Made by a program: the position numbers and the translations under genes
Part shown: piece by piece, positions 5,791 to 60,619 of the stretch
Layout: each line of letters starts with the position of its first letter
Position numbering within the stretch: the first letter of the stretch is position 1
Source of the DNA: Marsupella aquatica
Taxonomy: Eukaryota; Plantae; Marchantiophyta
DNA length: 64,000 bases
Direction: 5' to 3'
Assembly: GCA_973895155.1 (NCBI GenBank)
Contig: OZ316896.1
Span: 12,442,549 to 12,506,548 of the forward strand
Notes under the pieces: model-generated
Told to the model about the DNA's origin: nothing
Database searches by the model: none
The model's input: the letters and a program-made list of their open reading frames with translations, nothing else

Positions 5791-7425
5791 CACTTGAATA
5801 TGGGCGGTGGAACACAAGGGCATAGGGCTCATCATAGGGCCCTAACCTATGCCCTTGTAAATTTACATCTTTAGTGATAGTCCTTAAAGCTGATAATCAT
5901 AATCATAATCATATATCACATTTGAGCTCATTGATTTCCAGGATTGGCTTATTTGATTCGGCCCAGCTACCTTCCGAGGGTGAAATTTCAGTGGCAACTG
6001 GCAAGTGGGCAAAACATCGAACTGACTCTCTCCGGGTATTCGTCCATGTGGTCATAATATTTACTTATGCCTACCCACGGATACATATTAAAGGTTTCAG
6101 GTCCCAAAGTCACAAGATCCAGAAAAAACAGAAAGGTCCACCGCAGTGGCACTTGCCCTCAAGCTCAACATAAAGAACAATTGAGTACAACAAACGGACA
6201 ACATGCGTTGCCTATGCACGAAAAAAGAACGATGAGACTTTCGTAGAGACATGAATTACATATATTCATGAATCTCTGCCTCGATACTGCGACGTCACAT
6301 CGCAGACCTCCCTCCTGCGGTCCTGTAAGCCTGATAGAGTGGGCCCTTCTCACACAGAACTCAAATACATATCCAGCAAGTTTCACATTAACGAGATATA
6401 CGAGGACAGAATTGCTCATTGCTATGGAAGCCAAGACGGTAATGGTGAACCGAACCGGTGGACGAAAAATCAACCAATCTTGACCAAACATATTTCAACT
6501 AGGGGAGGATTGATCTATCATAAACGACAACGCCACCTACTCAATGTGTACCCATGAAGACCCCACACAAAATTAGCATTCAGGTCAAAACTTCTTCCCT
6601 CCAAATTAAGAGGGACATTAGATAAATGTTACACCCATATACAATAGATATCAGATATGGTCATTCCGGCGGCACTTGACACCTTGCTGCCACCTGTGAT
6701 GAGGTTCAACACCTAGATTACTCTGAGAATCTTGATACTATAAGTTGCGGAGGTCATAATCTACCCTTGGGAACGTGAAAACCTGACCTCACATAGTGCA
6801 ACTCTCTTCAGCAGAAGGCTAACAAATGGAGAGCTCCAAGACTCTACAAAGATAACCAGTCCACCCTGTACCTTCGAACCCTATTTCAGCATATATGCAC
6901 ATGGTGGAGTACATGAGGGGGAAGCTTGTCAGATCCAGCCCCTATCGACAAAATATTTCTGGGGGCCTTCGTCACCACGGCTGCTAGCTCATAATTACAT
7001 TGTATAGTGCCCACTCTCCGACCTACTTGAAACAAGTGCCAGACTCTCACAGGGTCCCGAAGCATGCTACCAAGTCTCAACATTTAATCACACACTACCC
7101 TGACCAGTTAAAAATGTTACCAAGTATACATCGGGTTCACCTCTATATTGACTTGGCTAAAATCAAGGGGATACCTGCATTCCCACTATGTCAGCGACTG
7201 GTGTCGCGGCAATCACTGTCTGCACTCTATGTCCGTGATAAACGACCTGCAAAGGTTTTGTTGATCACAGTTTCGAGTCAAAAAATCCAACTTGGGGCTG
7301 CTCGTCAGGATCGTCGATTGCACGCAGAATGCAGGAATGTTACAGAAGAAGCTCTGGTAAATGAGAGTGATCCCAACTACCGAAAAAGCAGGGCAAATCA
7401 CTGAGATGAAGTTTGTTATGCCCCT

Positions 7426-15253: not shown

Positions 15254-15934
15254 AACATGAATTAGACCCGCAATTATGATTGAATATGATGAAACAGGAT
15301 CAAAAGCTTCCAGCAGAGTCATTCCATTGATGGAGTTCGAATGATTCTGAAACAATGAAACACAATCTTAAATATAAACGTAATGCCAGGAAAGGATATC
15401 GCCATCGAGCTTCAATCTTCTTTGATCCATTTGAAATCATCTCCGCAAGTTGATGATTGTCCATCACAAACAGAACCCCGCCAATCAAAGCAAGGACGCC
15501 TCGGCAGCAGCTTGCACTCCCGCTCGCGCCATCGCCAGCAGCTCGTGCCATCCACAAAAACACAAACATCGAGCACACAGAGCACAGTATCGAATGATAG
15601 AAAGCAGCAGCGTGTCGCCGCCTCCTCAAAATACCTAAACTGAAAACCTATGAAACGTTGAATGAGCAGATTGAGCCCGTAGCGCTTCGCTTTGCCCCTC
15701 GACTATTTTGATTCTCGCCCAGTTCTCTCATTGGTGCACCGGCTATTGGGAGTCGCCAAATCCTAACCCTCCGTTACGTCGGGTAATGACGGTTCAGATC
15801 ACCCGTTACCGGGCGTAACCTGCGCTCCCAGGTTCTTCCCGAAGGTTTCCCGGCTCCCGCCGGTCAACCTTCTGTCAGAACTTGGTCGCCCGTTACACCC
15901 TGGTAACGGCTGACTAAACCCTCATTACCCTATA

Positions 15935-21499: not shown

Positions 21500-22955
21500 C
21501 TTTCACAATAGCACCTTGGGACATACATTGCCTCAATATCTTTGCCTCAACTTGACAATTTTTCTCGCCTTGACATATTTTTCTCAGCTTGACATATTTT
21601 TATCTCCTTGAGATATTTTCCTCACCCCAATGTTCTTTTCAATCTCACATTGACATCTTTTTCTCACCTTTCCATCTTTCCTTTAGCTCTGCACCTTTTT
21701 TCTCCTCAACATCTTTTATCACCTCAGCAGTTTCTCATGCACCTTGATATATTTTCGCTTCCTGGCATCTCTACTCATCTCAGCATCATATTTTCATAAT
21801 TTTCACATTTTTTTTCTCTCATGTACATGATTTTCTCACCTTAAAATCATTTTCTCACCTTGACATTTTTTTCTCTCATTTAACATTTTTCTCACCTCAA
21901 CATCTTTTTCTCTCCTCGACATATTTTTCTCATCTCAGCATCTTTTTATCTCCTCGATATCTTTTCCTCACCTCAATGTTTTTTTCTCACCTCAACATCT
22001 TCTGGGCAACGCATGGGCATTGGGCTATTTGAATATATATATATATATATATATTGTGCCAAAATAATGAGACTTCACACCCATAAACTATGACAAATAT
22101 TTATATGGTTTTTCATCACAATTGTCTCACAAAATTTGACTCCCAAAGAAAGCCTTGGAAGCAAAGCAAAGAGGGGGAGAGGCAAGGAGAAAGGGGAGGG
22201 GGGGCACATGGATGAGAAAAGAGGGAGGGAGAGGCTTCATCTTGCCCCATCTGGTCGCAGGTAAGGGGTGGAAAAAGTGTCAAGTTTATTTTCTCACCTC
22301 AAAATCTATTGCTTTACTTTACATCTTTTTCTGCTCAAAATCTTTTTCTCTTCTTTGCACACGTTTCTCTCCTCAACATCTTTTGTTCACCTAGACATAT
22401 TTTCTCTCCTCAATTTTTTTCTCATCTCAACATCTATTTCTCTCCTCAATATCTTTTCTCTCCTGGACATATGTTTATCATTTGGACATCTTTTCTCTCT
22501 TTGACATCTTTTTCTCTCCTCTACTTCTTTTATCACCTCAACATCTTTTCCTCACCTCGACATTATTCTCACCTCGATATCTTTTCTCTCCTCAACATCT
22601 TTTCGCTCCTTGACATCTTTTATCGCCTCGACATCTTTTCTCTCCTTGACATCTTCTATCACCTCGACATCTTTTGCTCACCTCGACATCTTTTCTCTCC
22701 TGGACATCTTCTATCACCTCGACATCTTTTGCTCACCTCAACATCTTTTCTCTCCTCGACATCTTTTATCACCTCGACATCTTTTCTCTCCTCAACATCT
22801 TCTATCACCTCGACATCTTCTATCACCTCGACATCTTTTGCTCACCTCAACATCTTTTCTCTCCTCGACATCTTTTATCATCTCAACATCTTTTCTCTCC
22901 TCGACATCTTTGTTCACCTCGACATCTTTCGTGCAACGCATGGGCATTGGGCTAG
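21500..22955 (+). mobile_element. Non-autonomous Helitron with ~18-bp CT-rich minisatellite and two tandem 3' termini
   Basis: Ends in CGTGCAACGCATGGGCATTGGGCTAG|T (22930-22956), a plant Helitron-type subterminal hairpin followed by CTAG and T. A degenerate earlier terminus GCAACGCATGGGCATTGGGCTAT lies at 22006-22028. Internal arrays of (TC)ACCTCGACATCTTTT units. The 5' boundary is approximate. Confidence 0.75.
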
Positions 22956-25900
22956 TAATATATAATAACACATAGATAGAGGACTAGGGTTGGGGCAAAC
23001 CGCAGCATGGGCGCATATAATAGATAATATTTTGAACATAATAGAATACATATGGACAATGTATTCAGTCTAAGACCGCCAAATTGTAAACATAAACTGA
23101 ATTGGCCCAATGATGTTGTCTGGCCGCTCCTTGGATGCAGTTTTCAGGTCTTGAAGGGTAGTCATAGCAAGAACACAAACTAGATCAACAAGAATAGGAA
23201 TAGGGAGCACCATAAAATGTCCAGAAATGAAACTAAACACAATGAGAACAAAGTTCCCAACAGGTTTTAGAAAGGGCCCGCACATTTGAATTTTAAATAT
23301 TCCTTTGACATTTTTATATAATATTCACATCAACTTCAGAAAGCAATGAGGATAAGGCCCTACAGTGCTCGCGTGCTTCAATACGGTCGTAAACTCCTTC
23401 ATTTCCAGTTTGGATATCTACAATAGCCACAGTGTATTCAACCTAGTTGGGAGGCAAGGCTATGGCACTTGGTGCTCCAATGCGGCCGTAAGGCCCTTCA
23501 TTTGTAGTTTGAATGCAATCGCCACAATGTATTTAACCAAGCTGAAAGGCCACAACACTACGTTGCTTGGGTGCTCCATTGAGGTCGAGGGCACTTGCAT
23601 GATAGATGCATTACACAATTGTGGTATGCCATATATGTCAGAATCCTTAAAAAAGGAGGAAGAAATGGTGAAATGACTAACTTTCAAAACTTTTTGGAGC
23701 TTTTTGATTGCATTTAAGTCATTTGGTGACTTACCAAAGGATATCACTCAAGTTTTGCAAAGAATGTCATTGGACGTCACCCGACATTTACAAAGGATGT
23801 TCGTTAGCGGTGTCCAAACTTGTTATATGGGGCGCTTTCAAGAGGCCCTCAACAATTTGATAAAAGACGCCCTTCAAAAGTGCCCAAGCCTAAGGCACTT
23901 GATATGTTTTTGGTCCAAAGCTCTTATTTATTTGAAAGTCTTCTATAACTTCAGTTTAGCTGGAAATTTGCAAGCATGATCTTTGGAGTATAATTTACTT
24001 GCTGGCAGTGTTCAAGACTTTTTGAAGTTGGTTTACTTGGTTTTTGATCAGGTCTATGTTAGTCAATTTTTATATTCGCATTCAATTACATCAAATTTTA
24101 ATTAACTGTTCTACTTTGTTTTACATATTAGTTTTCATTGGAGTATGAAGAGGTATGTCTTTTCATCTTTCCAAGGATATCCTTAATATTTTTTTTTAGT
24201 TAGTTTTTGGTTTTCAATGAGTGAAAAGTTACACCTTTTCATTTCCTCTTGACCATCCTTGCTTGAGGCATTATATAAGGAAAGATAATACACTAGTTAG
24301 GTAAGTTAGTTCTTGCATATCTTAGCCGAAGAGATTTTCCCTTTGACATTGATTATGGAGATATTTAAGACATATTTTGAATGTCACTCCTTAGGTGAAG
24401 AAAAGGAGACTAACTTCCTTCTATATTAGATTCCATGAGGAATTTGGATATGGAAGTAAAACTCCATAAATATATGTGATTTGTATCTTGGATCATAGAT
24501 AGCAGTGGCTTGAGATCCAATATATGAAACTCTTTCCTTATGAAACTCTAGAGTTGTCCAAAATATCTCTTACCATGTATGATTGGTAAGAATTTGTGGA
24601 AGTCTAGAGGAGAATTCATTTCAAGCTTTCTAAGGTAAAAGTCCATTCTCATGAGTTTTAGTACCGTCATTGGCAAACAAAGACTAGTAGCATTCATACC
24701 AAGTTGCGCATCGCCACAGTTTACTAGTTGGGACTGCACACAATGTCTAGAAATATCTTTGTGGGCTTGGTGAACTAATACTAGAAGGAGGAGAAATGAG
24801 AGTATAAATTTAGGAAGTAGTCAGAGAGGGGTTTTGTGTACCTTTTAACATCTTAAAGTGGCCACATCCTTCCATAAGCTATGGTGATGGAGGTAGCGCA
24901 GTGCTGAAGCCTGATTTTAAAAGTCCTAGAGTTATAGTCTATGAAAGAGAATTATATTCTCTTGTCTTTTGTTAATTGTACATTTTGGTTTCAAATGTGT
25001 AAGAGGTTGAGTTTCCTCTTTAAAGCACTCATTTGTGTTAAAACACTCCATTCCCATTCTGTTTTGCTTTTTAGGGGAACAAATTCTGAGTTTTTACTTT
25101 TATTATATGCAATTTATGCATTGACCCTATACCACAACAATAATTACCTTTTGAGATCACTACACAAGACCAACCACATTGTTATCAGGCTGCATATTCA
25201 GCCTAACGTGTGTGGTAACAACTTTCACAAGAACATTGTTGTACGGAGTGGGCCTAGAGGTCCACGGGAGAGAGTCTGAAAGTTTGGGGTTCTCTCGGAG
25301 AGAATCTCCATCTTTTGGTCCATTAAGAAAAAAAACTTTGTTGGAGGTCCACTAAGTATATATCTCAACTTTCACGACTCTTTGTTGTTTGTTGAGTTTG
25401 AGAAAAAGGTACTCCAATCTGAGTTGATTTGTTTCTGTCTAAATTGTGTAATGAAGACTTCATATAGTCAAACTGCTATCCAAGAAATTTCTTGATTAAT
25501 TAGCCCAACATGGCCTCATTTTGCCTCCGCATTCATTCTAAGTTCAATTGAAACGTTCCATAGTTTTGTTCCCATAATGTCTAATCGGATTCACTTAAAG
25601 ACATTCCAGCTCAGCATTGAGATTGATAAGCAATGGAATGAGAAAAGACCTTCAGGCCTTCCAGGAGACCTGCCTCAACCTGTATCATGCTCTGCAACTG
25701 AAATATAGTCCATGTCATGCTGTCAATACCACAATTGCTGTCCCTTCCCTTGCCGTGATTCGGCATTATTTGGAGGAGTGTTACGGAGAGTTCAGGTGGA
25801 GGTAAGGGAACTGATCCTAGACTCTTTTAAATGCTGCTTGAATTGATCAGCTCTGGTCCGATCTGGATATTGGGATGCTCCGTGAACATTGAGTCCAGCA

Positions 25901-34416: not shown

Positions 34417-37315
<2,899 letters not shown>

Positions 37316-38092: not shown

Positions 38093-40493
38093 TATAAATG
38101 CTAAATAGTATATACACACTTTTTATATACAAAGGGACCAATCAGAGTACAAATGAACAAACAAAAGAGGGCCCAGGTGAACAAAACCAATCGAAAAAGA
38201 AGTGAACAAAAGGGAACCACTAAACACCAAGAAAGAAGAACTAAAAGTAAGAAATGAGCAATAGGGAACCCCTAAAAACCAAGAAAGAGAGACTAAAACT
38301 AACCCAAGCGGACCGAGGTCCTCATCATTCCTAGCGAATGTGGCAAAAAGCTACTGGTCCACATCAAGGGTCAAAGCTAGATCGGCAAGTGGGATTGGAA
38401 CATCCTCTAGGGGAGCTAGCCGTTGCGGAGGCACAATAGCACCCACTATAAGAGATCGACGATAGATGGCCCGAGCTTGAGCACACTGCAAGGTGACTGA
38501 AATGCGTTGGCGAAAGTGCGTGGTCAAAATAGAAAGCGGGGGTCCGGTGGGACCCATGCGGCCATGAACATCCCGGGCAGCTTGCCGAAGAAGCCCATCA
38601 AACTAGGGATGAAGACGCCCAAATAGCTCCAGAGCAAGGGGGAGGAAGCTGTCGAATGAAGCTCGTGCAACATATTTGGCCTCCTTCGTTGTTGCCGCAC
38701 GTGACGCTGCTGCCCTTGCCGTAGTTGCCGCTGTCCCAATGATGTCTTGGCGCAATGGGTTTGCCACCACTACATCTGCCAATGTACGTTGACCCTCACG
38801 GACCATGGTAAGATCCACCCGTAACCGCTGTGATGGAGGACCAGGTAACTCGAGTACCACCTCCCGCCGCACGCATACCAAAGAGCCAGAGAGAACCTGA
38901 GCAGTCGCATCTCGCACAGCGTCGTGAACAATAATGGTTTCACCTCCCAAACTGCACCGAAGAAGATGGACACCTGTGGCATCACAAGGCTTCCCACAAG
39001 TGCAAGAAGGGGGTAAACCTGCAAGAAGTGGGTGGGGCAGCCCCATACGAAGACGCATGGCTGTGGAGAACTCCGTTGAAGACATCCGCAAATGAGGAAT
39101 GACTGGATTGGCCTGAAGCCATCCACCTGCGCCCTTCCCTCCGAAAGAAAGAATCCGAGCTTGGTCCGTGTCAGGTGCCTCGGAGAGGATGCTGGAAAGG
39201 GTGAAAGTGTGCATACGCCCATCGAGGTCTGCCTGAAGACGAACGGGATCCAAGGATAAAAACTCCTGAAAATAAGGTAACGCGGCGCGAACGGGATCTG
39301 GTAATGAGGACCACGCTGCGCGCAAATGAACCTGAAACGGGAGGGAACCCTCCTCTACCTCCATGAGAGATGAAAGTAAAAAAGGGCGATCCTCAATAAG
39401 AAAATGATCGGCCAACAATGAGAAGGCGGCCGCCCACGCACCCAAAAAGGCCAAAGGTGCAAGGCTCTCAATGGAAGTAAGCCCAAAACCACCATGCGAA
39501 ATAGGAAGACTGAGTTGTCGATGAAGCCACGGAGATGAGAGCAACGTACCCGGCCCCAAAAGAGAGGCCAGGGTCTGATGAATGGAGACATCAAATGCTC
39601 GAAGGTGGAGACAAAGATCCTCGGTAGGGGGATGCGTCCTAGCCAGATAAGACGCACGATGGTGGATGCACCTCAACAACATCCCAAATGTTGCCTGAGA
39701 ATCTGCTAACTTAGGGAGCATAGGAGTAGAGGCTAAGGCAGCCTGTAGAGAGTCAGCGATGAAAGAGGAGCAAAAGGAGGCGGTACCGACTGGGGAGCCA
39801 AGGACCCGAAGACCATCGGCTGGACGTAAGAACCCTGGGGGAAGTGCAAGATCAGAGGGTAACCCAGCTGGACTCCATGCACGACTCTTCACAGGCTGAA
39901 CTCGTAAACCGAGGCCCATCAAATGGGTGGAAAGAGTGGCGAGGGCAGAAGTAACCGCGGCAGGAGGACCAATGATGTGGGTGTCATCTGAAAGGGAGGG
40001 GAAGATACACTGGGGGTGGGCCATGGCGGCTTCTCGTAAAGCTGTAAAATGGGCAATGGCAAAAAGAGGCCCACCCAAAGGGTCACCCTGACGAGTACCT
40101 TCTGCAGAGGAAAGAGTGGTATACACACCTGTAGAGGAGTGATGACTATAGAAGAGTGGGGCCTCGAGTCCATAAAAACAACGGACAAAGGGGATCAGGG
40201 ACTAGATGTCTAGATCTGCCGCCCTCAAAGCACGAAAAATGGCTGCCCGAGAAACCGTATTAAAAGCGTTAGAGACATCAACTTGGAGGACAACCCAATC
40301 AGGGTGGAGGTCCAAGGTAGCTCAAATACCCGCAATAACTGTCTCACAACCGCCAGGAACGCCAACTGCAAACTGATGTGGAGAGAGATGATCCGATAGT
40401 GCAGAGCGAAACTGCGAGGAAAGTGTGCGAGACACAAGCCGAAGAAAAACCTCCCCAATAGCAATTGGCAGAACACCCGGTGAAGACTTAGCC
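38093..40493 (-). mobile_element. 5'-truncated CRE-like non-LTR retrotransposon (RT, CCHC, restriction-like endonuclease)
   Basis: 12-bp TSD ATATAGGATAAT at 38081-38092 and 40494-40505. Motifs in one frame: PIAIGEVFLRL, QFAVG, DVSNAFN, GTRQGDPLG, SLSDD, LRVLGSPVG, LPISHGGFGL, CTCG...HLLRC, HDAVRD, RVDL...LADVVV, KEAKY, FLPLALELFG. Confidence 0.9.
38351..40493 (-). pseudogene. RT-RLE ORF of the CRE-like element, broken by three in-frame stops
   Basis: A single frame runs from ~40493 to the stop at 38351. It contains TGA at ~40322 and TAG at ~40202 and 38603; no frameshifts were seen. Confidence 0.85.
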
Positions 40494-42640
40494 ATATAGG
40501 ATAATGGAGGTCTGGTTTGGGGTACCAGGAAATGAATAAAACTTGGCCTGACTCCGGGAGGCTAGAACCCCACACCAGACCTCCTTCCTAGTACATAATA
40601 TCTGCACAGAAAAAGGTTAGCTCAGGCAACAGATTATGGGAATAGCAGGTGACTTCCCAACTGGTTACATGCTGGTAACCTACATTTGGTACAGAATTTA
40701 AGGTCAAAACAAAAATGTCAAAGGCTACCTACTGTACATATGTGCCTCATAAGGATGGTACATCCAAAAAGCCCCATCCATAAGACCTTGCTTAGTGTAG
40801 TGCTCTAACATGCCCTAATGGAACACAAAAAGATGACCATTTTTTGCACAAAGTGGCCCAGACTTTCCAGTGAGGTGAAATTTGGCATTCTTGGCCAGTA
40901 AAAGAAAGTTGATGAGAACCATGAGACAATGAAAAGTGGACTACTATCGTGTCTTTTACCAAAAACATGGCACACACCTTGTATTCAAAAATCCAAAAAA
41001 ATGGACCTTTCTGTGAAAAGTGGTTTTGGTTCAAAACAACCCTCTTGTATTCAAAAATCTATTAGACAACCGAGGCAGTGTGTTCAAATGTGAACCCTAG
41101 GCGTATAGCAAAGTTTTGTTTACAGGGCAATGCTGGATAAAATGCCCCCCAAAAAGTAGTAAGTGGACCCTGCCATCTTGTCTTCCCTTAGTGATTCTTA
41201 AATTCAATCATAGAGACAGGTCACTGGAAATATCTTAAATGTTTGTATCAACGTTGTGGTTTCATGGAGCAACCTGGGAAATGAAGCCCATATAATTGGG
41301 CTCATTGTATATCTGGACCAGCGCTTAAGATATTGTTTGAGGTTGTTTGAACAAAACCCATTTTATTTTCATTTATTTTGTTTTATTTTGTTATTTTTTT
41401 AAATTTAAAGTGCAAATCTGTGAAACCCCACAGAAAGGGAAGAGTCAGTTACAACATTTGAACCCAAGACTTAAACCCTAAACCCTAAAATACACAGCCA
41501 TGCCTCTCTGGGCTCATAAAGTGGTTTATTGACTAGAGCCAAACCCATTGTAAGAGAGGCACTAATGGGGACTGAACTGGAGAGCAATTGCTATGAAGTC
41601 CTAGAGTAAAACTCTGGTCAAGATCATCCAGGCAAGCTTTCAAACAATGATCTCCTTATCCAAAATATAGCTTTTTGCTAGGTCATAGTAATAGTAGTTC
41701 TGAATGTGGTGGGAAAGATCATGGCACCCAAACAATCACATGTATCATACATGGCTTGGCAATATAATCATGGTCTGGTCCCGGGTCTGGTCTTTAGATT
41801 TCAACAGGGGTTTCAAGTGTCCACTTGGTTAATGAATGTTCAAAATGTTGGCAAATACAGTACCAAGCGCAAGTATTGGAAGGACAGTCAGTAAAAAAAA
41901 AAAAAGCCCCCAATTTCACTGGAAGCACCAGATTTGTGTTCAATTATGGAACCCCAAACCCATTTTTTGTGTTGGTTGTAACCCCAGGTGGTATCTTCAT
42001 CCAAACCTCTGAACTTGGGAGCAATCCTAAAATATTTTTGGTATCAAAGTCACAATTTATTGTTCTATAGCCAATCTAACCACTACAACATGCAATCCTG
42101 ACATGAGAAGATTGTCTGTTTACAAAATAAAAAGAGAAGTAAATGATTTTATGCCATCACATTCTCTAGACAGTCTGACTCTCAAAGGACCACTAAGACC
42201 CTTTGAAGCTTTTGAGAATTATGCAAAACTTTTGCCCTTGGATATGATCGATTAACAGACGCAATCAAGCGTTGGTGTGACGGGTACCCCGTCACGGGAA
42301 GTCACACATAACTGGTTGCAAAGGCCGATACCTTGTTAATAGTCAATGTAAATAAGCCATTTTTTAATTTTTAGTTAATTCCGTCATTATAGGTTGATGA
42401 TGCCCCAGGTGACTTTATATTCTTTCTCTCATAATAGTTCTAAGATTTGCGGCGACCTAAGTGGGCAAATATTTTGGGACCTTGAAACTAGCCAGGACCA
42501 GCCCCATAGGACTTACCGTTTTGCTTCAAGAGCTATTGTTGAGACCCCCATTGCAAAGTCAGGAGAGGGGGGGGTTTTTTTTTTTAAATAAATCCCTCCT
42601 CAGGAGGGCGAGTCCCATTAGTGGCCGTCCGAGAGAAAGA

Positions 42641-43010
42641 GGGGCTGCCTCGCGAGCCCATAGGGCTGCGTGCCCGGGCGATTAATGGGGCTCCGCGAGC
42701 TGAAGGGGCTGCCTCGCGAGCCCATAGGGCTGCGTGCCCGGGCAATTAATGAGGCTCCGCGAGCTGAAGGAGCGCAAGCGAGCGGGGGGGGGGGAGTTAA
42801 AGGGCCTCCCGCGAGCTGGGAGGATCACGCGAGCGGGGGGGAGTTAAAGGGCCTCCCGCGAGCTGGGAGGATCACACGAGCGGGGGGGAGTTAAAGGGCC
42901 TCCCGCGAGCTGGGAGGATCACGCGAGCGGGGGGGAGTTAAAGGGCCTCCCGCGAGCTGGGAGGATCACGCGAGCGGGGGGGAGTTGAAGGGCCTCCCGC
43001 GAGCCGGGAG
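42641..43010. repeat. GC-rich tandem arrays: 2 x 65 bp followed by 5 x ~47 bp
   Basis: GGGGCTGCCTCGCGAGCCCATAGGG... occurs twice, and GCGAGCGGGGGGGAGTTAAAGGGCCTCCCGCGAGCTGGGAGGATCAC occurs about five times. Confidence 0.9.
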
Positions 43011-43440
43011 GAATGGCCGCGCGCCCTGCATAGGGCCGCGCGCAGGAGGACGCAAGGGTAAGGCCCGAGAAATGGGCCGGGGCGCATGGCGAAGGCGCCA
43101 GGAGTTTTTTCGGTTCTATTTTTTTTTTTTTTCCTTCCTTTTTCTTTCCCTCTTCCTTTTGCACGACCCTCTCATTGCCGAAAGCAAAAACGGGGTTCTT
43201 CTCTCTCTTGCCGGAAGCTCTCTCCAGATTCTAATTATTTTTGAAGCTCTCTCTTTCATGGTGGATTAGTGGGGCTTGCTGGCGTCATTCTTCCAGGCAT
43301 TAGTGGCGGCCGCACGGAGTAGTGACGGGAAATTGAGAGAATTTAAGTGATCGGGCTACGGGGGCTGTTTCGGGCCAGGGAATTGACATTGCCACGGGTG
43401 ACGGGATTGGTGATTGAGAAATTGATTTCGGGATGCATGG

Positions 43441-45297
43441 ATGCTAGATCAACCAGAGTTTAGTGCGTCACGCATTCGGAGATACAAGGCTGCTTACCGT
43501 GACTACGTGGAGACTCGGATTACACGGGAAAGGGAAGAGAGAGAAGTTATGATGAGCACGGGATTGGCAGCGGGTTCCTCACCGGTGGGTAGGAAGATTT
43601 TTCGTCGAATTTATCCCAAGACCTCCACCAAGGTGATGGAGGATTGTCGGAACATTTTCCAAGCCACCGGGCTTACAGAATTCATGAAGGTGGAGATTAC
43701 CATCCCTTCAGGGAAGAGCTGGGACATTGAGGCCGGGATGGAGTTCCGAACGGAGGGAATCTACTTTGAATGTCTCAAACGTGTAGTGCCCCATGTGGAG
43801 TTGGCTAAGCTATTGTTTCTTGAGAATCAGAAATTCTCATTCACACCTCGGAATATCAGGGGAGAACTCACGTTGAAAATGGTGGCCACTTGGGTGACCA
43901 ATCCTACCTCCACCACCGCCATCCCTCTTTCTGCTGTCAAGGATGTTGAGTATAAGGGCTTCCTGGCCAAGGTGCATCAACGGGTTCTTGGCAACGTGCA
44001 ATCCGGAGTGCTGAATGAGGAGCATTTCGTGGTAGCTATGGACATCAAGAACTACCCAGCCCATGTGTACGGATGGTGGTGCTACGGATTGAAGAAGCTA
44101 TTGGCCGCTGAGCCCGGGAGTGTGAAACCAGGTGGGGCTGTACATTTGATGGGGTCATTTGTATTGGCCAGGGCAGAAGGGTTGATTGGTTCTCCGGGGC
44201 ATGAAGACACGGGATCATCTCTCACCACGGAGATCCGGAGTATTGCCACTACCGTTTTAGGGAAGCTCACGGAGGAATCATTGTCTGCTGGTGGGGAGGA
44301 TAATAGAGAAGAAGAGAACCAGGAGGATGATTGCACATTGGAGTGGCTTGAATCACTCGTGGGAGATCCGAAACAGCCTCTGGAATACAACATTCCGGAT
44401 GTTTACTTGGCAGAGCTACGGGATTTCAGAGAGGGAGTCCACGAGGGACTCAAGCTAGTCCACGCATTGAGGGAGTCTCTCAAGCACGCCACAGTCAAAG
44501 TAGAGACGTTAGAGCAGAGCATCCTGTCACTGAAGGAGGTGATCAAGACCAAGGAGCAGACCATTCATGAGAAGGTCAGGCACATCAATGCAGCTCACGT
44601 AGAGATCACCAACTTGAAGGGAGCTTTGTCCACCAAGGCCAAGGAAGCAGAAGAAGTAGGAGCGTTGAGGCAAGCATTGGCCAAAGAGAAGCAAAATTCT
44701 GGAGAAGTGATGGAGTGGAGGAACCAGGTGGGAGCACTACGGAGTCAGGTGGCAGCCTTTGAGACACGAGCGAAGAGAAGTGAGGCCCTGAGTCTAGGGA
44801 AACGGAAGAGTCCCGGCACACCTGGCTCCACACTTTCCCCGGATGTGATCTCCCAAGCTATCGAGATGGTGGTGAAGGAGGTTAGTGGGAAGTATGGACC
44901 CTTGTTGGATGGAGCCAAGAAGAGTCAGGAGAAGAGTAAGAGCTTGGAGAAGAAGCTCCGGGAGGTACGGAAATCGTTACGGGAGGCTCAGGTCAGTACG
45001 GGGATGCCACCCAGGTCTGTCACCCCCGGGACTCCCATGGCCACGGGGCAAGTTCTACCGTTGGAGTTGCGGTCCGGAGAAGAGGCTACCCTCTGGAAGG
45101 ACACAATTGGTGAGGGGTACATCAAGGCGTGGCAGGCCTTGGCTGCTTTGAGGAAGCGCGGGAGCAGCAGCACTAAGAGTACTCCGTCGAAGAAGAAGAA
45201 AAGTACGGTGGCACTCACTCCCGTGAGTGATGAGGAGGAGGACCACTCACGGGGCACAAGTCCGGGCACCGAGAGCGAAGAAGAAGAGGAGGATTAG
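43441..45297 (+). CDS. Intact 618-aa intronless ORF of unknown function (globular N-half, long coiled coil, basic NLS-like and acidic tail); probable retroelement accessory protein
   Basis: Uninterrupted 1857-nt ORF. Heptad-rich segment ~aa 325-450 and ~490-515, SKKKKS near the end, and a terminal ESEEEEED. No RT, integrase, protease or CCHC motif recognised. Confidence 0.7.
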   Translation: MLDQPEFSASRIRRYKAAYRDYVETRITREREEREVMMSTGLAAGSSPVGRKIFRRIYPKTSTKVMEDCRNIFQATGLTEFMKVEITIPSGKSWDIEAGMEFRTEGIYFECLKRVVPHVELAKLLFLENQKFSFTPRNIRGELTLKMVATWVTNPTSTTAIPLSAVKDVEYKGFLAKVHQRVLGNVQSGVLNEEHFVVAMDIKNYPAHVYGWWCYGLKKLLAAEPGSVKPGGAVHLMGSFVLARAEGLIGSPGHEDTGSSLTTEIRSIATTVLGKLTEESLSAGGEDNREEENQEDDCTLEWLESLVGDPKQPLEYNIPDVYLAELRDFREGVHEGLKLVHALRESLKHATVKVETLEQSILSLKEVIKTKEQTIHEKVRHINAAHVEITNLKGALSTKAKEAEEVGALRQALAKEKQNSGEVMEWRNQVGALRSQVAAFETRAKRSEALSLGKRKSPGTPGSTLSPDVISQAIEMVVKEVSGKYGPLLDGAKKSQEKSKSLEKKLREVRKSLREAQVSTGMPPRSVTPGTPMATGQVLPLELRSGEEATLWKDTIGEGYIKAWQALAALRKRGSSSTKSTPSKKKKSTVALTPVSDEEEDHSRGTSPGTESEEEEED

Positions 45298-48200
45298 ATA
45301 GGCGTACGGACGTGGGTGTACGGCCTCCAGATTTCCAACATTTTAGTGGGGGGTCACTCATGGGCTTGTTGGGATGAGCTCGCGGAGCTGATTCCAACAA
45401 GAGGCGGCGCTCCTCAAACGGAGCCAGGATGAGCAAGTTATGGCCTGGAGAACTTATGTTTTTGCGGTACGGAAACGGCCATAACTCAGGCGTCTGAAGT
45501 CCGTTGAGGGAGCGACTTAGTGATTCGGAAGCAGGAAAAGAAGAGCTATCCAGGGGTGAGCTCAGGTGTGCACTTGGAAGGGCACCTAGTTTCGGCCATT
45601 TTGGGGTGCCTCTCACTTTCAGGGTTCACGTGTACTGTTGGGGCGCCGTCGAAGGCACCGTCGGCCCCCTTGTTTTGGGTTTAGGGTTTTAGCAGCATGT
45701 GTGTGCCGCATGCTCCTCTTCAGTTTAAGGATTTCTCTTAGTGCAAGGTTTTAGCGGCGCCGCTAGGGTAGCCGCCACCGTTGTGACCCTGTGAGGGGTG
45801 CTTTGGTGTGATTTTTCAGTATTTAGGGGGATAGCCCCGAAGTAGTTAGGGGGACTCAGTGTGAAGTTAGCAAGGAGGGATAGAGTGGAGCCTGAGGAGT
45901 TTGAAAGCGTGTTCAGAGTAGTGAGGGGGAGCCATACTCATTGTCCGGAGAGGCAGGAGTTGAGTAGACGGCAGGAGGCCGGGTTACTCATGCAATGTGT
46001 ATCGTTTTTCCCAAGAGATATGGATCTGTACATTTGACTTGATGGGCTTTTGTTGTGTGTTCCTTCTCCCTTTTTCGCTTTCCGAATTGTGTTCTCCCGT
46101 TCTATGATTTGAAGAAACTTGCTTGGTTTGAGTCGGCCTTGTGAGTAGGGGTGGTGACAGCACTCTTTGGGTGACTCCGAGTGAAGGTGTAGTGGGGTAG
46201 TCGGCAGGACTTGATCAAAAGCTGTGGGGTGAGGGTAGTCGGTAGACTTGATCAAAACCTACATTTCCGGGAGCGGAAACCAAAATACTCATCCTGGTGT
46301 GAAAAGAATCCAAATAGCGTCCCTCCACGACCCCGTAATACGATACCAACGGTTTAAGCGAAGAAAAGTGCGGTTTGCACGTATTAACCGTTGGAGAGGC
46401 AAGTGACAGTTGGCCAACAAAAAAGACGTTGGATGTTGGCGCACAATTATGATAGGGCAAGGGTTCAAGTCATTGGATTTTGTACATTGACAATTAAGAT
46501 CAGATGCTGATGATTAATGATGACTGTGTGCAAATTAAATCAATGATACTTTAAGTTTCCTATATGTTCTTTATTCATTTTCCTAGTGTTGTTTCTGTGA
46601 TATGAGGGTATGTCACCATCAAGTTGCATCAAGCATGTTTTAGCAAACAACTTTGCTGTCTAAAATAGATTTTTTATGTTGCTGCCTAGCTTGGGGACCT
46701 CCTCATTATACAAATTTGAAGAAAATGGATTTATTGAAAAAAATTGATGAATTTTATCAAACCGATCAGATGAAGGGGAAGAGAAAACAAAAATTTAAAA
46801 ACTCTGATGGGAGTGTGATAGGATAAAAGAAAGGAAACAGGTGGATGGTTTGGGGAGGGGCAAGGACGGGGAAAAAACATTTGTTTTCTAGTTAGGTAGG
46901 AGTGGAATGCACTAAAATGTTTTGATGCCCTGATTACCTTTGTTGACCTAGTTGCCACAACTCTCACCCAAGCTCCTTCCATCTTACTATTAAAGCGTCA
47001 ACTCAAGTCTACTTTTAAGAACCTAGGTCTAGAGTGAAGCCTCTAGACCGTAACTCTATGGTCATCATGTGCATGGGAGAAACTCATGACATCATCAATG
47101 TACATACCAGTTTTCCTTGATAATTTCTATATGCATTATGGCCCCACCACAACATATGTGCATTAAAAAATACACATGTGCACATAAAGAAGAAGGGTAT
47201 ATTATATATGACTATTAAAATGATGAATTTTTTTATCATTTCATTAACCTTCAAAGAATATGGATAGAAAATATATTTTGATAATTTTTTATTATACTCT
47301 CTGCTATTTACGTTCAAAGAACGGGTAGTCGGGGCTAGTACCTCTTGCTCTAGAACTCTTGACCACCTTCCCCACCAACAAATTTTTGTATGGACCATCC
47401 TCAATGTTGCCTGTGTAATTTTGCCTTAACAACATAGGTAGGGCATTTAATTTATGGTTTCCGCTTTCCTGATTGTCTGTGCATTTTTTCTCTTTGTAAT
47501 CAACCACTACAATAGGGGATCCCGTCCATTATGGCAGATGGTCTGTTTACAAAAAGTAGAAAAGCAAGAATAATCATAGTCTTCCACTGAAAATGGGTTG
47601 TCCGACAAATATAGTCACCATTGGATCTGCCTCTAATAAACCTCTTCTAACCAATTCCTGCCTAACCTGCCTGGATGCCCATTACCTGGTGGCATGTGCC
47701 TCTTGTGCATTGGCTAAGCCTGCCTTGGCTCCCTGCTATGCAAGCCCCTTTCTCTCCTTGCCCTTTTTGCTCATTTGCCTGTGCCCTGTGCGCATCAGCT
47801 TGCCCTTCTGTCTCACCCACGGCCTCCCTGATGTGCCCCTACACCATGCCCCACATTCACCACCTTCCTTGTCCTGGGAGGGGAAGGAGATGAAGGAGAG
47901 GGAGAGACAGGGAAAGGCAAAAAGGGAGGAAAAGACATAGAATAATGACTATGCCTAAACCGAGCAAAATCACAATTGTTGTCAACCATGTCATGCACTC
48001 TCAGAGTCCCTTGCCCTTCCCAACAACAACATGTTTGAAGGGAGGTTCTGGAAGTTGGTTGATAGATTGCCTGAAGGGATCCTAAGAATTCCTGACTTCA
48101 TATCCACGTACCTTGAAGAAGAGTATGAGAGTGGTTCCATGTGCGTACGGGAAGGGAGCGTCGAGCCACCCTGCCCCTCCCATCCTCAATCCTTGGAAAC

Positions 48201-50123: not shown

Positions 50124-51300
50124 ATGGACAATGATCCTCTTACTCAATCAAAATTTTGTAGAGCACTCCTATTTTCTCAGATAGTTCTGTCCTTTATGCA
50201 AGCACTTGGGTTAGTCCATATTCGGCCAAGATAGGTGATAGATTAGTGGTACATTAAGCCTCATACACGACAACAATTAATCATTTGGATTGATGAGACA
50301 CCCTGGGAGGATCCAACCCGCTTTCAAGAGTTTTTCCAAATTAGTCCCCCACTGTTTCTCTACATATGTGAGCTGTTGCATGAAGATATGATCATAGACC
50401 CTCCCATTTCATTGCAAGATTTGCCCAATTGACAACTCTTGGTAATGAGGCAAGTTGCTCTTGCCTTGAGGCGTCTTGGTACTGGTGATACATTCACAAC
50501 TCTTGGTGAATTGTTTGGAGTTTTAAAGAGTTTTGTTGCGAAGGTGACTTGGAACTTCATTTCCTCTTTACGAAGGAGAGTTGCACATGTTATTTGGTGG
50601 ACAAATGAGGCAAGTCTACCTGAAGTGAAATAGGAATTTTAGGACAGATGGGGTTTTCAAAATTGCTATGGAGCTATTTGGCACTCACTTGCCTATTGAG
50701 CTGCCATTCGGTGAGGACTCTACTCAATACTATGATTGGAAGCACAAGCTCTCAGTCTCTATGCAAGCCATTTGTGACCAGAGATTAAGGTTCTTGGATG
50801 TATGTTATGGATTGCGGGGAAGCATTCAAGATACTAGATTAATGAGTATGTCCCAATTCTATTACCAAGTCACTCAACATCATACTCGACTGGTTGGGTC
50901 TCTATTCCATTATCAAGATGGCAGGATGCTGCAGGAGTACATCATTGGGGATGGCGGGTATCCTCTACTCCCTTGGCTAATTGTTCCTTTTCCACAAGGT
51001 GTATCAAAGCAGGTTGCAGATAATGTGTGTGAAAGAGCCTTTGGAAGGTTGAAAGGCACATGGAGAATTCTAAGTAGGGTGCTATGGAAGCCCCGCATTG
51101 AAAGACTTGGGCCAATGATTTTTTCTTGTTGTATTCTCCACAATCTCATCATAGATAGGAATGATGGGCTGCCAAATGTTGTTTGGCAGCACTATCCGCC
51201 TCACCCACCAGACTCTACAAGGGTCTTACGTCCTAATAGGAGAATGTATAGAGGTGGACCAGAAGGACGAATGGCCTTAATGGACCATGTAGGATGGTGA
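50124..51300 (+). pseudogene. PIF/Harbinger DDE transposase (HARBI1/ALP1-like), inactivated
   Basis: Motifs RFQEFFQIS...LFLYIC, QVALALRRLGTG, CYGAI/GTHLPI (frameshift at the first catalytic D), MQAICD...RFLDV, GSIQD, YIIGDGGYPLLPWLIVPF, ERAFGRLKGTWRIL and CCILHN. Several premature stops. Confidence 0.9.
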
Positions 51301-51799: not shown

Positions 51800-52795
51800 A
51801 GTCCATCGGCAAGGTATCTCACAAAGTCAGCAATGAATGCATGAGCAACGTTGCTTCAGCCTAAGCATATAATGTATCATTATATCTCTTGTTGTTAAAA
51901 GTGAGAAGTTCTTTGTGCTCCTCCCTTCTTGCAACATGATCCTCCCCAATTGTTTTGACAAAATGCTTAGTCACTTTGTGCACTTCATCTCTTGTCCGCT
52001 TGGCTGCTTGCTTTCTTTTCCAGCCCCTAGTGGTTGATGGATGTGCATCCCCCTATCCAGTGACAGAGGCCAGACTTTATCCCATGGGGCTAGGGTTAGG
52101 GGAGTTGGTCGGCTGAGATGGTGTGGATCAATTCCTGCCTGGGTGACCAGTCTCAGCAGGAGTTGGCGGATCACGAGTGGTTGATGGTGGTATGTATGAC
52201 GTATCCAAAGGGTCTGCATCAGAATCTAGGTCCTCATATGCAGCATCAAGATTTTGCTCAATTGGGTCACCTCCACCCATGTCTGAATTGGTACTGGACC
52301 ACAATTGGGCTTTGGGAGTCATGCCTGATCCTGGGTCGATGGATTGACGGACAGCTTCTTCAGCTTCGGCATCTGCTGTGTTGTCAACATAATGATTAGG
52401 ATCTGGATTGACAACTCTATTAGTTGGGATAAAGACAACCATAGTCTCATAAATATCTTGCTGGAAAGTAGTGGGCAAGCCCCGATCCTTCTTCTCACAC
52501 CTTGACAACTTAAAGTACCCGTCAGCACCAGAGGGGTTGTTGGCCTAGAAGTCAAAAATCTTTTTGAAATCTATCAATATTTCTCCCATCTTTTCTTGCA
52601 CTGCTTTGAGCCACTTTGAACATTGTTTGCCTTACACATGTCTTCAATTTCCTTTCACCTTTGCTCAGCTGTTCGAATTCGTTCTCTGGATGAGTCTAGC
52701 TAAGACTGTTCTTGCTGGTATTTCTTACTATCCACAAGGACCAGCAGTTCCCTTGTGTCCCATTGAGCAGTTCTTGCCATACACTCCTCTGCCAT
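51800..52795 (-). pseudogene. Harbinger Myb/SANT (trihelix-like) DNA-binding ORF, inactivated
   Basis: MAEECMARTAQWDTRELLVLV...R*KEIEDMC...QCKKRWEK/ILIDFKKIFDF*...YFKLSRCEKKDRGLPTTFQQDIYETM, with stops and a frameshift. It is convergent with the transposase, as expected for two-gene Harbinger elements. The 3' limit is approximate. Confidence 0.8.
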
Positions 52796-56419: not shown

Positions 56420-56489
56420 AACCATACCTCACCTCGACATCTTGTCCCCACCTCAAAATCTTATGTGCACCACATGGGCATCAGGCTAG
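56420..56489 (+). mobile_element. Helitron 3' terminus of the same family as 21500-22955
   Basis: CTCACCTCGACATCTT followed by GTGCACCACATGGGCATCAGGCTAG|T. Confidence 0.6.
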
Positions 56490-57270
56490 TATCCTATAAA
56501 GCTATAGCTCCCGTCCCCAACCTTACACATTCATTACATACCCCCATGGGAAGTTCTTCCAAATTTGCTGGATGCACATGTATCCACATCAGCATGATTT
56601 GTCACTAACAAGAAAAGTTAGTTGTACAGAAGAACCAAATTTGACTATTTGTGTTTGAGGCAAAGCAAAGAAAACACTTAGACGTGTAATCGTAAAAACA
56701 ATGGAAACTGAAAAAGTAACATTTCATATAAACAAAGAAAAGTGTAAAATAGGGGTGAAAAAAATAATATTTGGATGATTTTCTGGTAATCTGTTTCAAT
56801 TTTCTATTGAATTTACCAAGGTAACATAATAAACTCGAGAAACCTTTTGGTTATGTACTATGGATAGGGGAGTAACAAGCAAAGATAAGAAACATAATAA
56901 CTACTATGGGTAGAAGAAGATCAAGGGACTCTAAGTACTTTCAACTACTATGGACAAAGTAATATTTTACATGAACTGTATGAAATGTTATATATATATT
57001 GTATAGACATAGAGGTACTAAGTGAAAAGTTTTGCATGGAGAATTTCCTCATTATTATCATGAATGTATTCTTATTTGTCTTCAATGAAATTCTCCTAAC
57101 TACCTTTAAAGTTCATTTCATTTAGAATTCTCCATTTATTCTTTGTCCTCTAACTCATCTATTTATTCCAATGTGCAACTCTTCATGACTCCACGTAGTT
57201 TAATAAAAACTCAAACTAATTGTGCCTCTCTCTTTTGGACCTTCCTAATAAGATGCTCGAAACAACCTCT

Positions 57271-58640
57271 AAATTAGTTCGTGGACCCCCTAGCTACATT
57301 TTTAGGCCTTGTTTGAGTGGAAATAATGTATGTATATTAGTTTTAGCTCAAGTTGTGTGAGTCTATTATGGTCCAAAGTGATCTGGTAACACATGTTATT
57401 ATGTTGAGATAGTTGTACAAATTTTAGTGAAAATATAGGATAAATTACCTCATCCAAATGTGATTTTGCAATAGTCTTCACAATGACTAGTAAAATGAGG
57501 GCTTTTAGCTTGAGTTTTGAGAGGCTAATATGGTTCATAATGCTCTGCTAGCAGGCATTAAAACACTTAAGATATGTGAGATATTTTAGCTAATTTTAGA
57601 ACATGAATAAACCCAAGGCACATTTTGTTAGAGTTAGTTGATTTGGGCATTGGATGACACTATATTCTACCACTAAAGTGCCATGGGCACTTTGAGTTGA
57701 GAAAAATACTTTGTCAAGATCAATTGAGAAGACTGCTTTTCTCAACAACAAACCCTAAGCTTTCTAGTAGTTGAGCCCTGTTAATTTGTAAAAGATAAAT
57801 TGTCAATGTACTTTCAAATAATTGGAAATTCTGGAGATTTCATTGAAGTCTGACTTTGGCTAGTTTTGAATTAGAGGTTAATAGCCTCATGACCTTGACG
57901 CAACTATTCACCAAATGGAGAAGGGCAAAGCTAGTTTTGAGAAGAGAGAAGTCTCATTAGGAATGGAAGCTGGTAATCATGTTGTGTTGAACAAGTAGGA
58001 TAGATTTTCTCACAAAATCATTGTGAACCCATTGAGCGATGGCTTGAGCAATTTTTTCAACTGCCACATGAAACTTTGCGTTGTAGGTTGAAGTCGACAA
58101 CATGATTTATCACAAGCAGTTGTCAAAATCATGCCTTTTCGCTACATGCAACCAAATTCTCAAGAGAGTCAATAGTCACTTCGTGGCAAGTCCATTTGAA
58201 ACTAGATCAATGTCTGATCAAATGAATTGTATCAATTCATTGAGTTCAAGTTTCGACCATGGCATTTTGCCTGAATTGCAAAAGGCTAGAAATCTTACTC
58301 CATGTGCTGGTTACTCGTTAACAAGGAAATTATCAAGTTAGTTATTAGTCATTGTTTAATATATGAAAAATACTTTTCAAATCTTTGAATTTAATTTTTA
58401 AAATTGGATACGTAACTAAAACGGTTACATAGTGACAGTTTTACCTGTCTTGCTCTTTGCCTTTCTAAAATTTACATTTCTTTTTATGGCATGGCATCCC
58501 AAAATTTACACCCAAATTGACGCAAACACGAATGAAAACTGTAAGTTTGATTCACAAAACCGACGAGTCTTGTTTGTTGCGGTTGTTGTTGACGTGGACA
58601 TTCTGGTGCCACGAATTTTGGAAGGGACCCCTGGTCCGGA
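57271..58640 (-). mobile_element. Non-autonomous repeat family, copy 2 (inverted)
   Basis: The reverse complement of ~58430-58635 aligns by eye with 1585-1790. The terminal GGGGGTCCACGAACTAATTT motif lies at 57290-57271 (minus). Confidence 0.5.
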
Positions 58641-58689
58641 ACAAGGTTTTGTACACCTTATCCTCCCATTTAGTTGTGCCTCTATCTTC

Positions 58690-58888
58690 ACCGCACGTTA
58701 AATCTACACCGCGTTAATGTTCCCTGATCGTCTTGGGGCCCTGTACATTGCCCATCCCAGTTCCCAATGTTGTTGCCCGCTCCGGCGTGAGTCTGTCAGA
58801 ACATAAACTAAGACTCTATCATTTTGTCGAGTATACGGGGCCCAAGATGATCAAGGAGCATTAACACGGTGTACATTTAACGTGCGGT
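58690..58888. mobile_element. 199-bp Mutator-like MITE
   Basis: ~57-bp imperfect TIRs (ACCGCACGTTAAAT... / ...ATTTAACGTGCGGT). The 9-bp flanks TCTATCTTC and TATATCTTC match at 8 of 9 positions. Confidence 0.8.
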
Positions 58889-59190
58889 TATATCTTCTAC
58901 AGTAGAACTTCTTACGGTGCTCATCAATGGTGGGAACCAACCAGGCATTCTAAAATCTACACTTGAGGTAGTCTATTCCCAGACTGTCAGTACACTAATG
59001 CAGTCTTCCACGCAAGGATGTACCAGAGTATTTTTTTAATGTTATTTGTTTTTGGCCAGAGTGTGGAATGTTACCTGGTGTGCATTATAAATGTTAATAA
59101 GATTCCTTATCTAATTTTTGACGTTAATTTCCAGCCATTAGATCTCCCAGATTCAAGGACAACTATGAGATTCTGCATAATGCTGTTTAC

Positions 59191-60619
59191 GGACCCCCAT
59201 TAGGGGTCTCTTGCAAATTCTCTGCCATGAGGTTGCGCCACATCACCACAACCAGCCACAAACAGGAATGATCCTACTTTTAGCAATAACAAACGTGCAC
59301 ATTCCTGTTTGTGGCAAAAGCAACGTAATTTTTGGGGCGCCATGCCGTAAATATTAAACGTAAAAAAAACCAAAATACAAAGGAAGAGATGTCATTTAGT
59401 AAAACAAAGTTACCATTTTGATGTTTGTCAAAGATATATCAGTGTTTTATATCAAAATTCTTGTATTTTTTAATTGTAAATGTACATAGTTAAAATCCCT
59501 TTGGCTTCACATTGTAAAACTAAATAATAAATCTCCTTAGTACTTGATAAAATCTGTCAATGTTTGATTCATTGGAAAATTCAAGATCAAGATTTAGAAA
59601 CTCATGATCTCTTTAGTAATGTCATGATAAAATCTCAATGTCACACTCATTAGAAAGTTAGAGTAAAATTAAAAACTAATAATCTCCTTAGTACTTGACA
59701 AAATCTATCAATGTTAGGTTCATTGGAAAGCTAGAGAAATTTAGATACTCATGATCTCTCTATTTCTTGACAAATAATCTCAATGTCACACATTAGAAAG
59801 CTAAAGAGATTGAAAATCTCCTGATCTCTTGAGTACAGTGACAAAATCTGAAATGAATTTGTCAATGTCGGATTCAATGTTAGAAAGCTAAAAGAATTCA
59901 TGAACTCATGATCAAAATTTATTATACTCACACTCATTGGAAAGGCAAAGAAATTCAAAAACTCATATGGAACTTGACAAAATTTGTCAATTTGAGGCTC
60001 ATTGGAAACCCTTTCTCGATTAAGAGATATCACAATCTCGTCACCGTCACAAACTTAGCCACTACAAATTGATTTCTTTGATTACGTCGTCATCGCTAGT
60101 CCACAATGCTTGCTTCCCGGCTTGAATTGTTCGCATCTCTTAGATAGTCTTCAACTGAAAACACAGGTTGACGCCAAATGTAGCCTCTATGTCAAAGAAA
60201 CAATTGTTGGTCTTCCCTTCACACCATAGCTTTCTTAAAAATAACTACAAATCCTTTGTTTGAAATGATGGCTTGTTTGTTTTGTGTGTTCTTCCCACCA
60301 AATCGACAAGCGCTCTTTTGCCAACAACTGAGTGTTGTGCTCCAGTCTGTCTTGTGGCGGTAATGCTCAATGCAACTCACAAACAATCAATCAACAAATG
60401 GTTGAAAGATGATTTCTCCAATGTGTAAGCAAAACCTATAAAAAAACTCAATTCCTCCACATTCAACCTTTCGTTTGATAAATCTCTATCTTTTGAGCAT
60501 TTGTTTTTGTACGAGCACACACCAACACCATCGGGAGACTCAAAATCGTTAGTTACCGCCTTGATGAAAATTGATTTCACTTAATCACACACACATTCCT
60601 TGGATAAACATGGGGGTCC
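59191..60619 (+). mobile_element. Non-autonomous repeat family, copy 3
   Basis: Perfect 10-bp terminal inverted motif GGACCCCCAT / ATGGGGGTCC. The left arm is homologous to copy 1, and an internal ~60-bp satellite spans 59520-60030. Confidence 0.6.

Follow-up and report, generated by a model that had tools for sequence, protein, structure and literature searches.

Several non-chromovirus retrotransposons of plants combine extra open reading frames (ORFs) and tandem arrays with long terminal repeats (LTRs) of up to approximately 5 kb and a target-site duplication (TSD) of 4 or 5 bp (PMC6317226). The LTRs of Retrosat2 and RIRE8 (~3 kb) end in GGGCGTGACA, and Retrosat2 has 429 solo against 162 complete copies, a ratio of 2.6 (PMC3485330). 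Tat-clade elements are present in Marchantia (PMC10508981), and the Athila, Phygy, Tekay, and Tat lineages have been named in Apopellia (PMC12885004). Extra ORFs are common in plant retrotransposons; their function is unknown, and the position given for them is the internal region (PMC7264820, PMC6317226). Examples are Grande gene23, which shows nuclear localization and has its own promoter, PvRetro13 ORF2 with an SMC-like domain (PMC7264820), Retand TRP28 with predicted DNA binding (PMC11963269), and the sunflower aORFs, which carry a nuclear localization signal (NLS) and Transposase_32 (PMC11728184). A protein gene inside an LTR is known from mouse mammary tumor virus (MMTV), where sag/naf is located in U3 of the retroviral LTR and has its own promoter (PMC9412291). 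Here, we discuss a 4133-bp unit with an intact 618-codon ORF in 64,000 nucleotides of DNA from the liverwort Marsupella aquatica (contig OZ316896.1, positions 12,442,549 to 12,506,548; hereafter "the window", in which all positions are given). The unit is probably the solo LTR of a Ty3/gypsy retrotransposon that carries a gene within its LTR.

With large-LTR plant Ty3/gypsy elements (Ogre/Tat/Athila; Retrosat2, RIRE3, RIRE8) the unit shares TG..CA termini, a 5-bp TSD, a size of 3 to 5 kb and the GTGACA end, as well as tandem arrays, high copy number, and frequent solo copies (PMC6317226, PMC3485330). The extra ORF of those elements is internal, up- or downstream of gag-pol, whereas here the ORF lies in the unit itself. 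The described plant extra ORFs [Athila ORF1 (PF03078), Transposase_32 (PF20167), Retand TRP28, Grande gene23, and PvRetro13 ORF2] are likewise fast-evolving, element-borne genes; theirs, however, are internal-region genes, while the present ORF lacks a Pfam match and has named relatives in a single liverwort only. The likeness to MMTV sag/naf is the protein gene inside an LTR (PMC9412291). In contrast to that animal retrovirus, the unit resides in a plant host, and its ORF, which greatly exceeds sag in length, has neither a transmembrane segment nor any sequence relation seen to sag. MMTV sag comprises approximately 320 amino acids. Exact-phrase searches of PMC and bioRxiv returned no case of a gene inside a plant LTR, although Repbase, Dfam, and the supplements of PMC6317226 may contain such families.

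Boundaries, copies, and ends of the unit

The unit extends from 42276 (TGTGAC) to 46408 (GTGACA) and is bordered by GTTGG on each side, at 42271–42275 and 46409–46413. A first-pass annotation of the sequence had reported these ends and the exact duplication, and both are present. It had also treated TG..CA ends with a 5-bp TSD as a sufficient signature of retroviral-type integrases, and this view has to be given up: at spacings of 200 to 8000 bp, the window holds 50 pairs, the unit included, that combine TGT..ACA, a 5-bp duplication, and a 5/6 inverted match. The end motif and TSD are therefore not significant alone, and since the motif is within chance expectation, evidence from outside the window was needed to establish the boundaries.

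This evidence comes from public DNA runs, in the form of depth steps and contig ends. Part of the stretch is contained in 9 of the 13 listed runs, and half or more of its words in six; four runs from three studies (X1, X2, X3, and X5) were compared in detail, of which X1 may stem from the same source as the window. On single main-path contigs, the depth within the unit is 1524 to 1599 in X1 and 5631 to 6330 in X2, as compared with 14.6 to 15.7 and 23.5 to 26.9, respectively, in the flanks. The resulting ratios, approximately 100 (X1), 220 to 250 (X2), and 50 to 110 (X5), are rough copy estimates, and near-identical copies of the unit number roughly 100 to 250. The main-path depth is level along the unit from end to end in X1, and the ORF, its leader, and both unit ends have one common depth in X1 and X2. 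Moreover, contigs terminate at the edges of the unit: record 2 of X1 begins exactly at 42276, record 30 of X5 stops exactly at 46408, and loose ends are found at both termini. The five X2 contigs with loose ends before 42276 agree with each other at 0.51, and the four X1 contigs behind 46408 at 0.52. Simulated unrelated flanks gave 0.50 and 0.53, and flanks with one identical pair 0.56 and 0.63. Because the observed agreement matches that of simulated unrelated flanks, the flanks of other copies look unrelated among the 24 loose ends listed out of 1059. Both flanks of this copy are single-copy host DNA, and homologous copies stop at 42276 and 46408 rather than running past these positions; neither of the two outcomes that the first-pass annotation had named as refutations, longer homologous copies or an ORF in the internal region of an ordinary element, was thus observed. 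A second copy was not found inside the window by either blastn or tblastn, as the first-pass annotation had stated for a second LTR.

Contigs that join the unit to its host DNA also bear on how this copy was inserted. Both junctions are represented in X1 (records 1 and 8) and the right one in X5 (record 31), and the junction contigs overlap the unit by 28 to 29 nt. Record 16 of X2 is 890 nt long, of which 600 nt align from exactly 46409. The remaining 290 nt equal the span 41981–42270, whose overlap with record 9 is exactly 30 nt, the value typical of neighboring contigs. By this arithmetic the record is probably the empty allele with a single GTTGG, the joint alignment itself not being among the 15 of 46 listed. 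If so, the site is polymorphic for the insertion, and integration itself created the 5-bp duplication; the unit family is probably insertion-polymorphic.

Relatives of the unit do not follow it evenly along its length. In X3, which is labeled as another organism, the flanks are not covered, 42276–42930 is present at about one-quarter of the depth with diverged sequence, and long pieces agree with the ORF at all or nearly all positions; this pattern suggests a sub-family in which the promoter part at the left end has been exchanged. In X2, the right 1.1 kb exceeds the ORF in summed depth and variant load, where summed depth is a poor measure and X5 is free of a right-end excess. The X2 excess and the diverged X3 left end indicate that parts of the unit have different sets of relatives.

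The termini match each other in inverted orientation at 5/6, 6/10, 8/20, and 29/100 bases, and none of the 25 longest of 84 inverted repeats spans the unit from end to end. Inspection within the unit revealed no internal direct repeat and no remnant of a primer-binding site (PBS) or polypurine tract (PPT). The left terminus at 42276–42295 (+), beginning with TGTGAC, contains a palindrome with an 8-bp stem, the fold of which is not significant (z −1.6; 17 of 200 shuffles as good), and a subterminal hairpin with a 9-bp outer stem precedes the GTGACA end at 46345–46392 (+; z −2.1, 6 of 200 shuffles as good). Two candidate motifs were rejected. The TGG directly after the CA end, considered as the start of a PBS, is made up of the TSD and single-copy host DNA, and TGGTATCA at 42039 lies in the single-copy flank, 237 bp outside the unit. 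An Rfam scan of 41000–48000 gave 0 matches. Short, very high-copy, diverged repeats are present at 41300–41500 and 47000–47400, on either side of the single-copy flanks. Taken together, these observations show a genuine element with definite boundaries, recent mobility, dispersed copies, and integrase-type ends.

The gene in the unit and its non-coding surroundings

The ORF at 43441–45297 (+) encodes 618 amino acids and occupies 45% of the unit. The longest stop-free frame runs for 623 codons, whereas no frame in 300 shuffled versions of the unit exceeded 269; the length of the ORF, which had been annotated as uninterrupted, is thus far above chance. The encoded protein has a conserved N-terminal domain (residues ~50–245), an acidic linker, a long coiled coil (residues ~320–520), an NLS-like PSKKKK at residue 582, and an acidic tail.

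A phmmer search with residues 1 to 290 against 1.84 billion representatives (E up to 0.001) identified six relatives, five Logan fragments and one "unnamed protein" of the liverwort Calypogeia fissa. One fragment (P0001) is 43% identical over 177 residues, shares the start position, and is nearly identical over the first 23 residues. The C. fissa protein (P0005, CAM6083533.1; 596 amino acids) matches the N-terminal domain at 28% identity over 189 residues (E 1e-19), and a second, weak match (23%, E 0.003) reaches the coiled coil. Its layout resembles that of the ORF product, with an N-terminal domain, a coiled coil, and a basic cluster, PPKKRK, comparable to PSKKKK. A profile search for longer forms (350–2000 amino acids) recovered only P0005 and a second C. 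fissa protein (P0008), which is encoded on a different long contig and is 38% identical to P0005; the absence of a gag-pol fusion among these forms is weak evidence. Differences among the copies of the unit are distributed unevenly with respect to the reading frame. Among the 12 of 17 indels listed, 11 fall in the unit: both ORF indels are 3 nt long, while the nine outside the ORF are not multiples of three, so that none of the nine listed frame-shifting indels is in the ORF (p ~0.005, or ~0.03 with adjacent rows merged to six events). Substitutions (40 of 181 listed) number 25 in the unit, and the single one in the ORF is synonymous. Judged from these comparisons of sequence, the 618-residue ORF is a real gene conserved at the protein level.

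A Pfam scan of the ORF returned coiled-coil noise only, with no integrase or transposase match. With the threshold relaxed to E up to 10, the N-terminal domain was unmatched in six members apart from one spurious zinc-finger match, and neither the domain nor its relatives matched the PF03078 or PF20167 profile. The ORF is devoid of CCHC and HHCC zinc motifs. It is also free of a transmembrane helix, the highest 19-residue Kyte-Doolittle mean being 1.09 for the ORF and 1.23 for P0005, which is at odds with an Env-like protein. The motif pattern gives the impression of an ATHILA-ORF1/Transposase_32-like protein. In the ESM Atlas, the nearest named clusters include, in agreement with this impression, ATHILA ORF1 at rank 3 (0.82) and Transposase_32 at rank 9 (0.80), both below the 0.9 bar, and the likeness is accordingly treated as a lead only. 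AlphaFold2 models (mean predicted local distance difference test score, pLDDT, 44) were too poor for fold comparison, and the fold searches made with them (best Z 4.4; none with E <0.001) are meaningless. A PDB sequence search gave two chance matches only. Word-based protein searches, one using the complete protein and one using alignment A1, found no match and are uninformative, as the A1 search overlooked proteins that are present in the collection. Collections in which plant repeats are not expected gave nothing: metagenome contigs yielded 36 protein-pattern matches, 0 of them confirmed, and 0 matches to a 22-nt pattern; prokaryote genomes yielded 0 matches, and viral contigs four, again 0 confirmed. 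For the ORF product, the prediction is a soluble coiled-coil protein that is nuclear and resembles those encoded by plant extra ORFs (with ATHILA-ORF1/Transposase_32 likeness as a lead only), and that is neither an envelope protein nor an integrase.

To the left of the ORF lie the features that the first-pass annotation had described as GC-rich tandem arrays and a pyrimidine-rich leader, and both were recovered. The arrays consist of a GC-rich 64-bp tandem repeat of 2.0 copies at 42640–42770 (+) and a 47-bp tandem repeat of 4.8 copies (97% matches) at 42788–43012 (+). The latter, with a CpG observed/expected (O/E) ratio of 0.94, is a putative promoter/enhancer block, and the GC content of the array block is 70%. 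A pyrimidine-rich putative start region and leader follows at 43060–43440 (+), with pyrimidine runs at 43119, 43196, and 43247 (region 43119–43260), and ATGs upstream of the ORF are located at 43072, 43086, 43258, 43433, and 43437. Behind the ORF, the 1.1-kb non-coding part at 45298–46408 (+) contains many of the listed copy variants. The GC content is 50 to 70% over most of the unit, compared with 39 to 40% in the flanks, and CpG O/E is 0.57 to 0.94 in the unit versus 0.16 and 0.24 in the flanks. Since values of 0.8 to 1.0 also occur in host gene regions of the window, the raised CpG O/E is only a mild sign of the youth of the unit. Poly-T runs at 42575 and 43119 exceed the X1 main path by 2 and 5 nt, through slippage or assembly error.

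With respect to orientation, the variable, array-bearing left end, together with a right part that is common to more diverged relatives in X2, gives some indication of a left-hand U3. A hint of the opposite LTR orientation, with the ORF antisense as in Grande gene23, comes from a telo-box-like AAACCCTA on the minus strand near 45680.

Origin of the unit

Three features looked for in a solo LTR are present in the unit: TG..CA termini that form a short, imperfect inverted repeat, a TSD of suitable length (5 bp), and dispersed copies with the same ends but differing flanks. We consider it probable that it is the solo LTR of a giant-LTR Ty3/gypsy retrotransposon in which an accessory ORF has moved inside the LTR, in the manner of MMTV sag. 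An element with gag-pol bounded by two such units would have been reverse-transcribed and integrated, generating the 5-bp duplication, and recombination between the two 4.1-kb repeats would then have removed the inner part and left this solo copy. The GC-rich and pyrimidine-rich block to the left of the ORF would drive its transcription, such that every LTR, solo or paired, would be a complete expression cassette. The protein may be nuclear, oligomerize via its coiled coil, and act for the element; by analogy with Grande gene23, PvRetro13 ORF2, Retand TRP28, and the sunflower aORFs, its role would most plausibly be in the element's own transcription or in escape from silencing. As to origin, an internal extra ORF was likely absorbed into the LTR through a boundary shift. 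The ends, the TSD, and the dispersal fit the earlier suggestion of an LTR that encodes an accessory protein; the suggestion is unproven, since neither a gag-pol partner nor a PBS or PPT came to light beside the listed copies. In agreement with the first-pass annotation, gag and pol are missing from the 10 ATG ORFs of at least 150 amino acids (8 of 10 Pfam-scanned), and the right flank to 54000 is without a stop-free frame of more than 223 amino acids.

Several observations weigh against this interpretation. No internal region, PBS, or PPT was found beside any copy among the 24 loose ends listed out of 1059. A collapsed inner contig would overlap the unit by at most 30 nt and may escape notice in the run comparison, given that the junction contigs overlap it by only 28 to 29 nt. 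A solo copy in a very young family requires fast LTR-LTR recombination. A canonical TATA box was not found in the unit, and the sole AATAAA, at 42587, is upstream of the ORF. Several of the non-ORF indels are adjacent or in homopolymers, and shuffled proteins reach Atlas scores such as those reported above (<0.9) a third of the time.

Among the alternatives, a stand-alone, non-autonomous element that travels in one piece, its DNA cut or copied by an integrase-type transposase acting in trans, with the ORF as passenger or helper, would account for the level X1 depth across the unit and for the unrelated flanks at both ends of the listed copies with no inner region seen. Such an element would act in a Ginger/GingerRoot-like manner without being a member. 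Integrase-related DNA transposons do occur in plants, and 5 of 77 GingerRoot copies are TG..CA-ended (PMC6839031); GingerRoot, Ginger1, and Ginger2 share with the unit integrase-type ends (TG..CA in some copies), a size of 4 to 13 kb, and passenger sequences (PMC6839031). Short hairpins near both ends of the unit also point in this direction, although they are marginal (see above). However, those elements have long terminal inverted repeats (TIRs; 100–150 bp in GingerRoot), TSDs of 6 to 8 bp (GingerRoot), 4 bp (Ginger1), or 6 bp (Ginger2) (PMC6839031), and an integrase-like transposase, and the unit has none of these: its termini agree at only 29 of 100 bases, its TSD measures 5 bp, and the ORF lacks an integrase zinc motif and a transposase Pfam match. 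An integrase-like DDE transposase is not required of non-autonomous Ginger-type copies. The earlier proposal of a Ginger-like unit thus fails on TIR and TSD length, and movement of the unit on its own appears unlikely. More improbable still is a rearranged derivative, in which a single deletion event joined a portion of one LTR, an internal extra ORF, and a portion of the other LTR, and the product then became the LTR of one non-autonomous sub-family, the gene in the LTR being a recent accident. The uneven relatives suit this scenario, with a right 1.1 kb that in X2 is deeper and more variable than the ORF and a left end that in X3 is thin and diverged, and so does the usual position of extra ORFs between pol and the 3′ LTR (PMC7264820). 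Against it stand the lack of internal direct repeats and of PBS or PPT remnants within the unit, the common main-path depth of ORF, leader, and both ends in X1 and X2, and the weakness of summed depth as a measure, with X5 showing no excess. Finally, the 50 comparable motif pairs would allow the TSD to be a coincidence and the ORF to be a host gene or part of a larger repeat; the depth steps and contig ends at both termini, the single-copy flanks, and the probable empty allele largely refute this, and we give it hardly any credence.

If the unit is a solo LTR with a gene inside, a more far-reaching proposal can be made, which we regard as possible but doubtful. In a liverwort Ty3 lineage, the giant LTR would serve as the gene cassette for an old, conserved nuclear accessory protein, and solo-LTR formation would leave hundreds of intact, expressible copies that act in trans as helpers or against silencing.

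Neighboring sequences and implications

The genes of the window include ones for CCT-motif and I29 protease proteins (Pfam), which mark the host as a land plant. The first-pass annotation had described the neighboring transposon ORFs as decayed, and this was borne out in part. The Harbinger-type DDE_Tnp_4 nuclease at 50629–51300 (+) is a 210-residue fragment (E 3.5e-22), and a short convergent frame at 52128–52544 (−) may, by eye, be the Harbinger partner ORF. The non-LTR reverse-transcriptase-like frame at 38603–40201 (−), provisionally labeled CRE in the first-pass annotation, is broken upstream and yet open for 532 codons; its scanned 472-residue part gave no Pfam reverse-transcriptase match, and the end of the frame falls shortly upstream of a gene for a papain-type protease (I29 domain, 36752–37315). 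A 249-residue ORF at 14573–15322 (−), in a PRR-like gene region, is bracketed by a 96-bp direct repeat (98%) at 13622 and 15935; by eye, and without Pfam support, it resembles DUF3504/Crypton-type proteins. Minisatellite arrays of 18 to 19 bp (TTTCTCACCTCGACATCT type) occupy 21531–22964, with a short related piece at 56427–56499. A dispersed repeat family is present in both orientations at 1571–2297 and 58471–60008, with an internal periodicity of 72/151 bp and a 52-bp inverted pair at 58690/58888.

An ORF in an LTR survives solo-LTR formation and occurs twice per element, which alters gene dosage and host purging. Hence, if the unit is an LTR that acts as a gene cassette, solo-LTR formation, normally the host's deletion of retrotransposon genes, would leave expressible copies instead. 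If, on the other hand, the unit moves alone, it would represent a class of mobile DNA that combines integrase-type ends with a lack of TIRs, an even stranger case. There is also a warning for annotation, as such ORFs get called host genes, and the Calypogeia relatives may be a case in point. The family is young, intact, near-identical, and probably insertion-polymorphic, and it constitutes a tractable system for testing the function of the protein.

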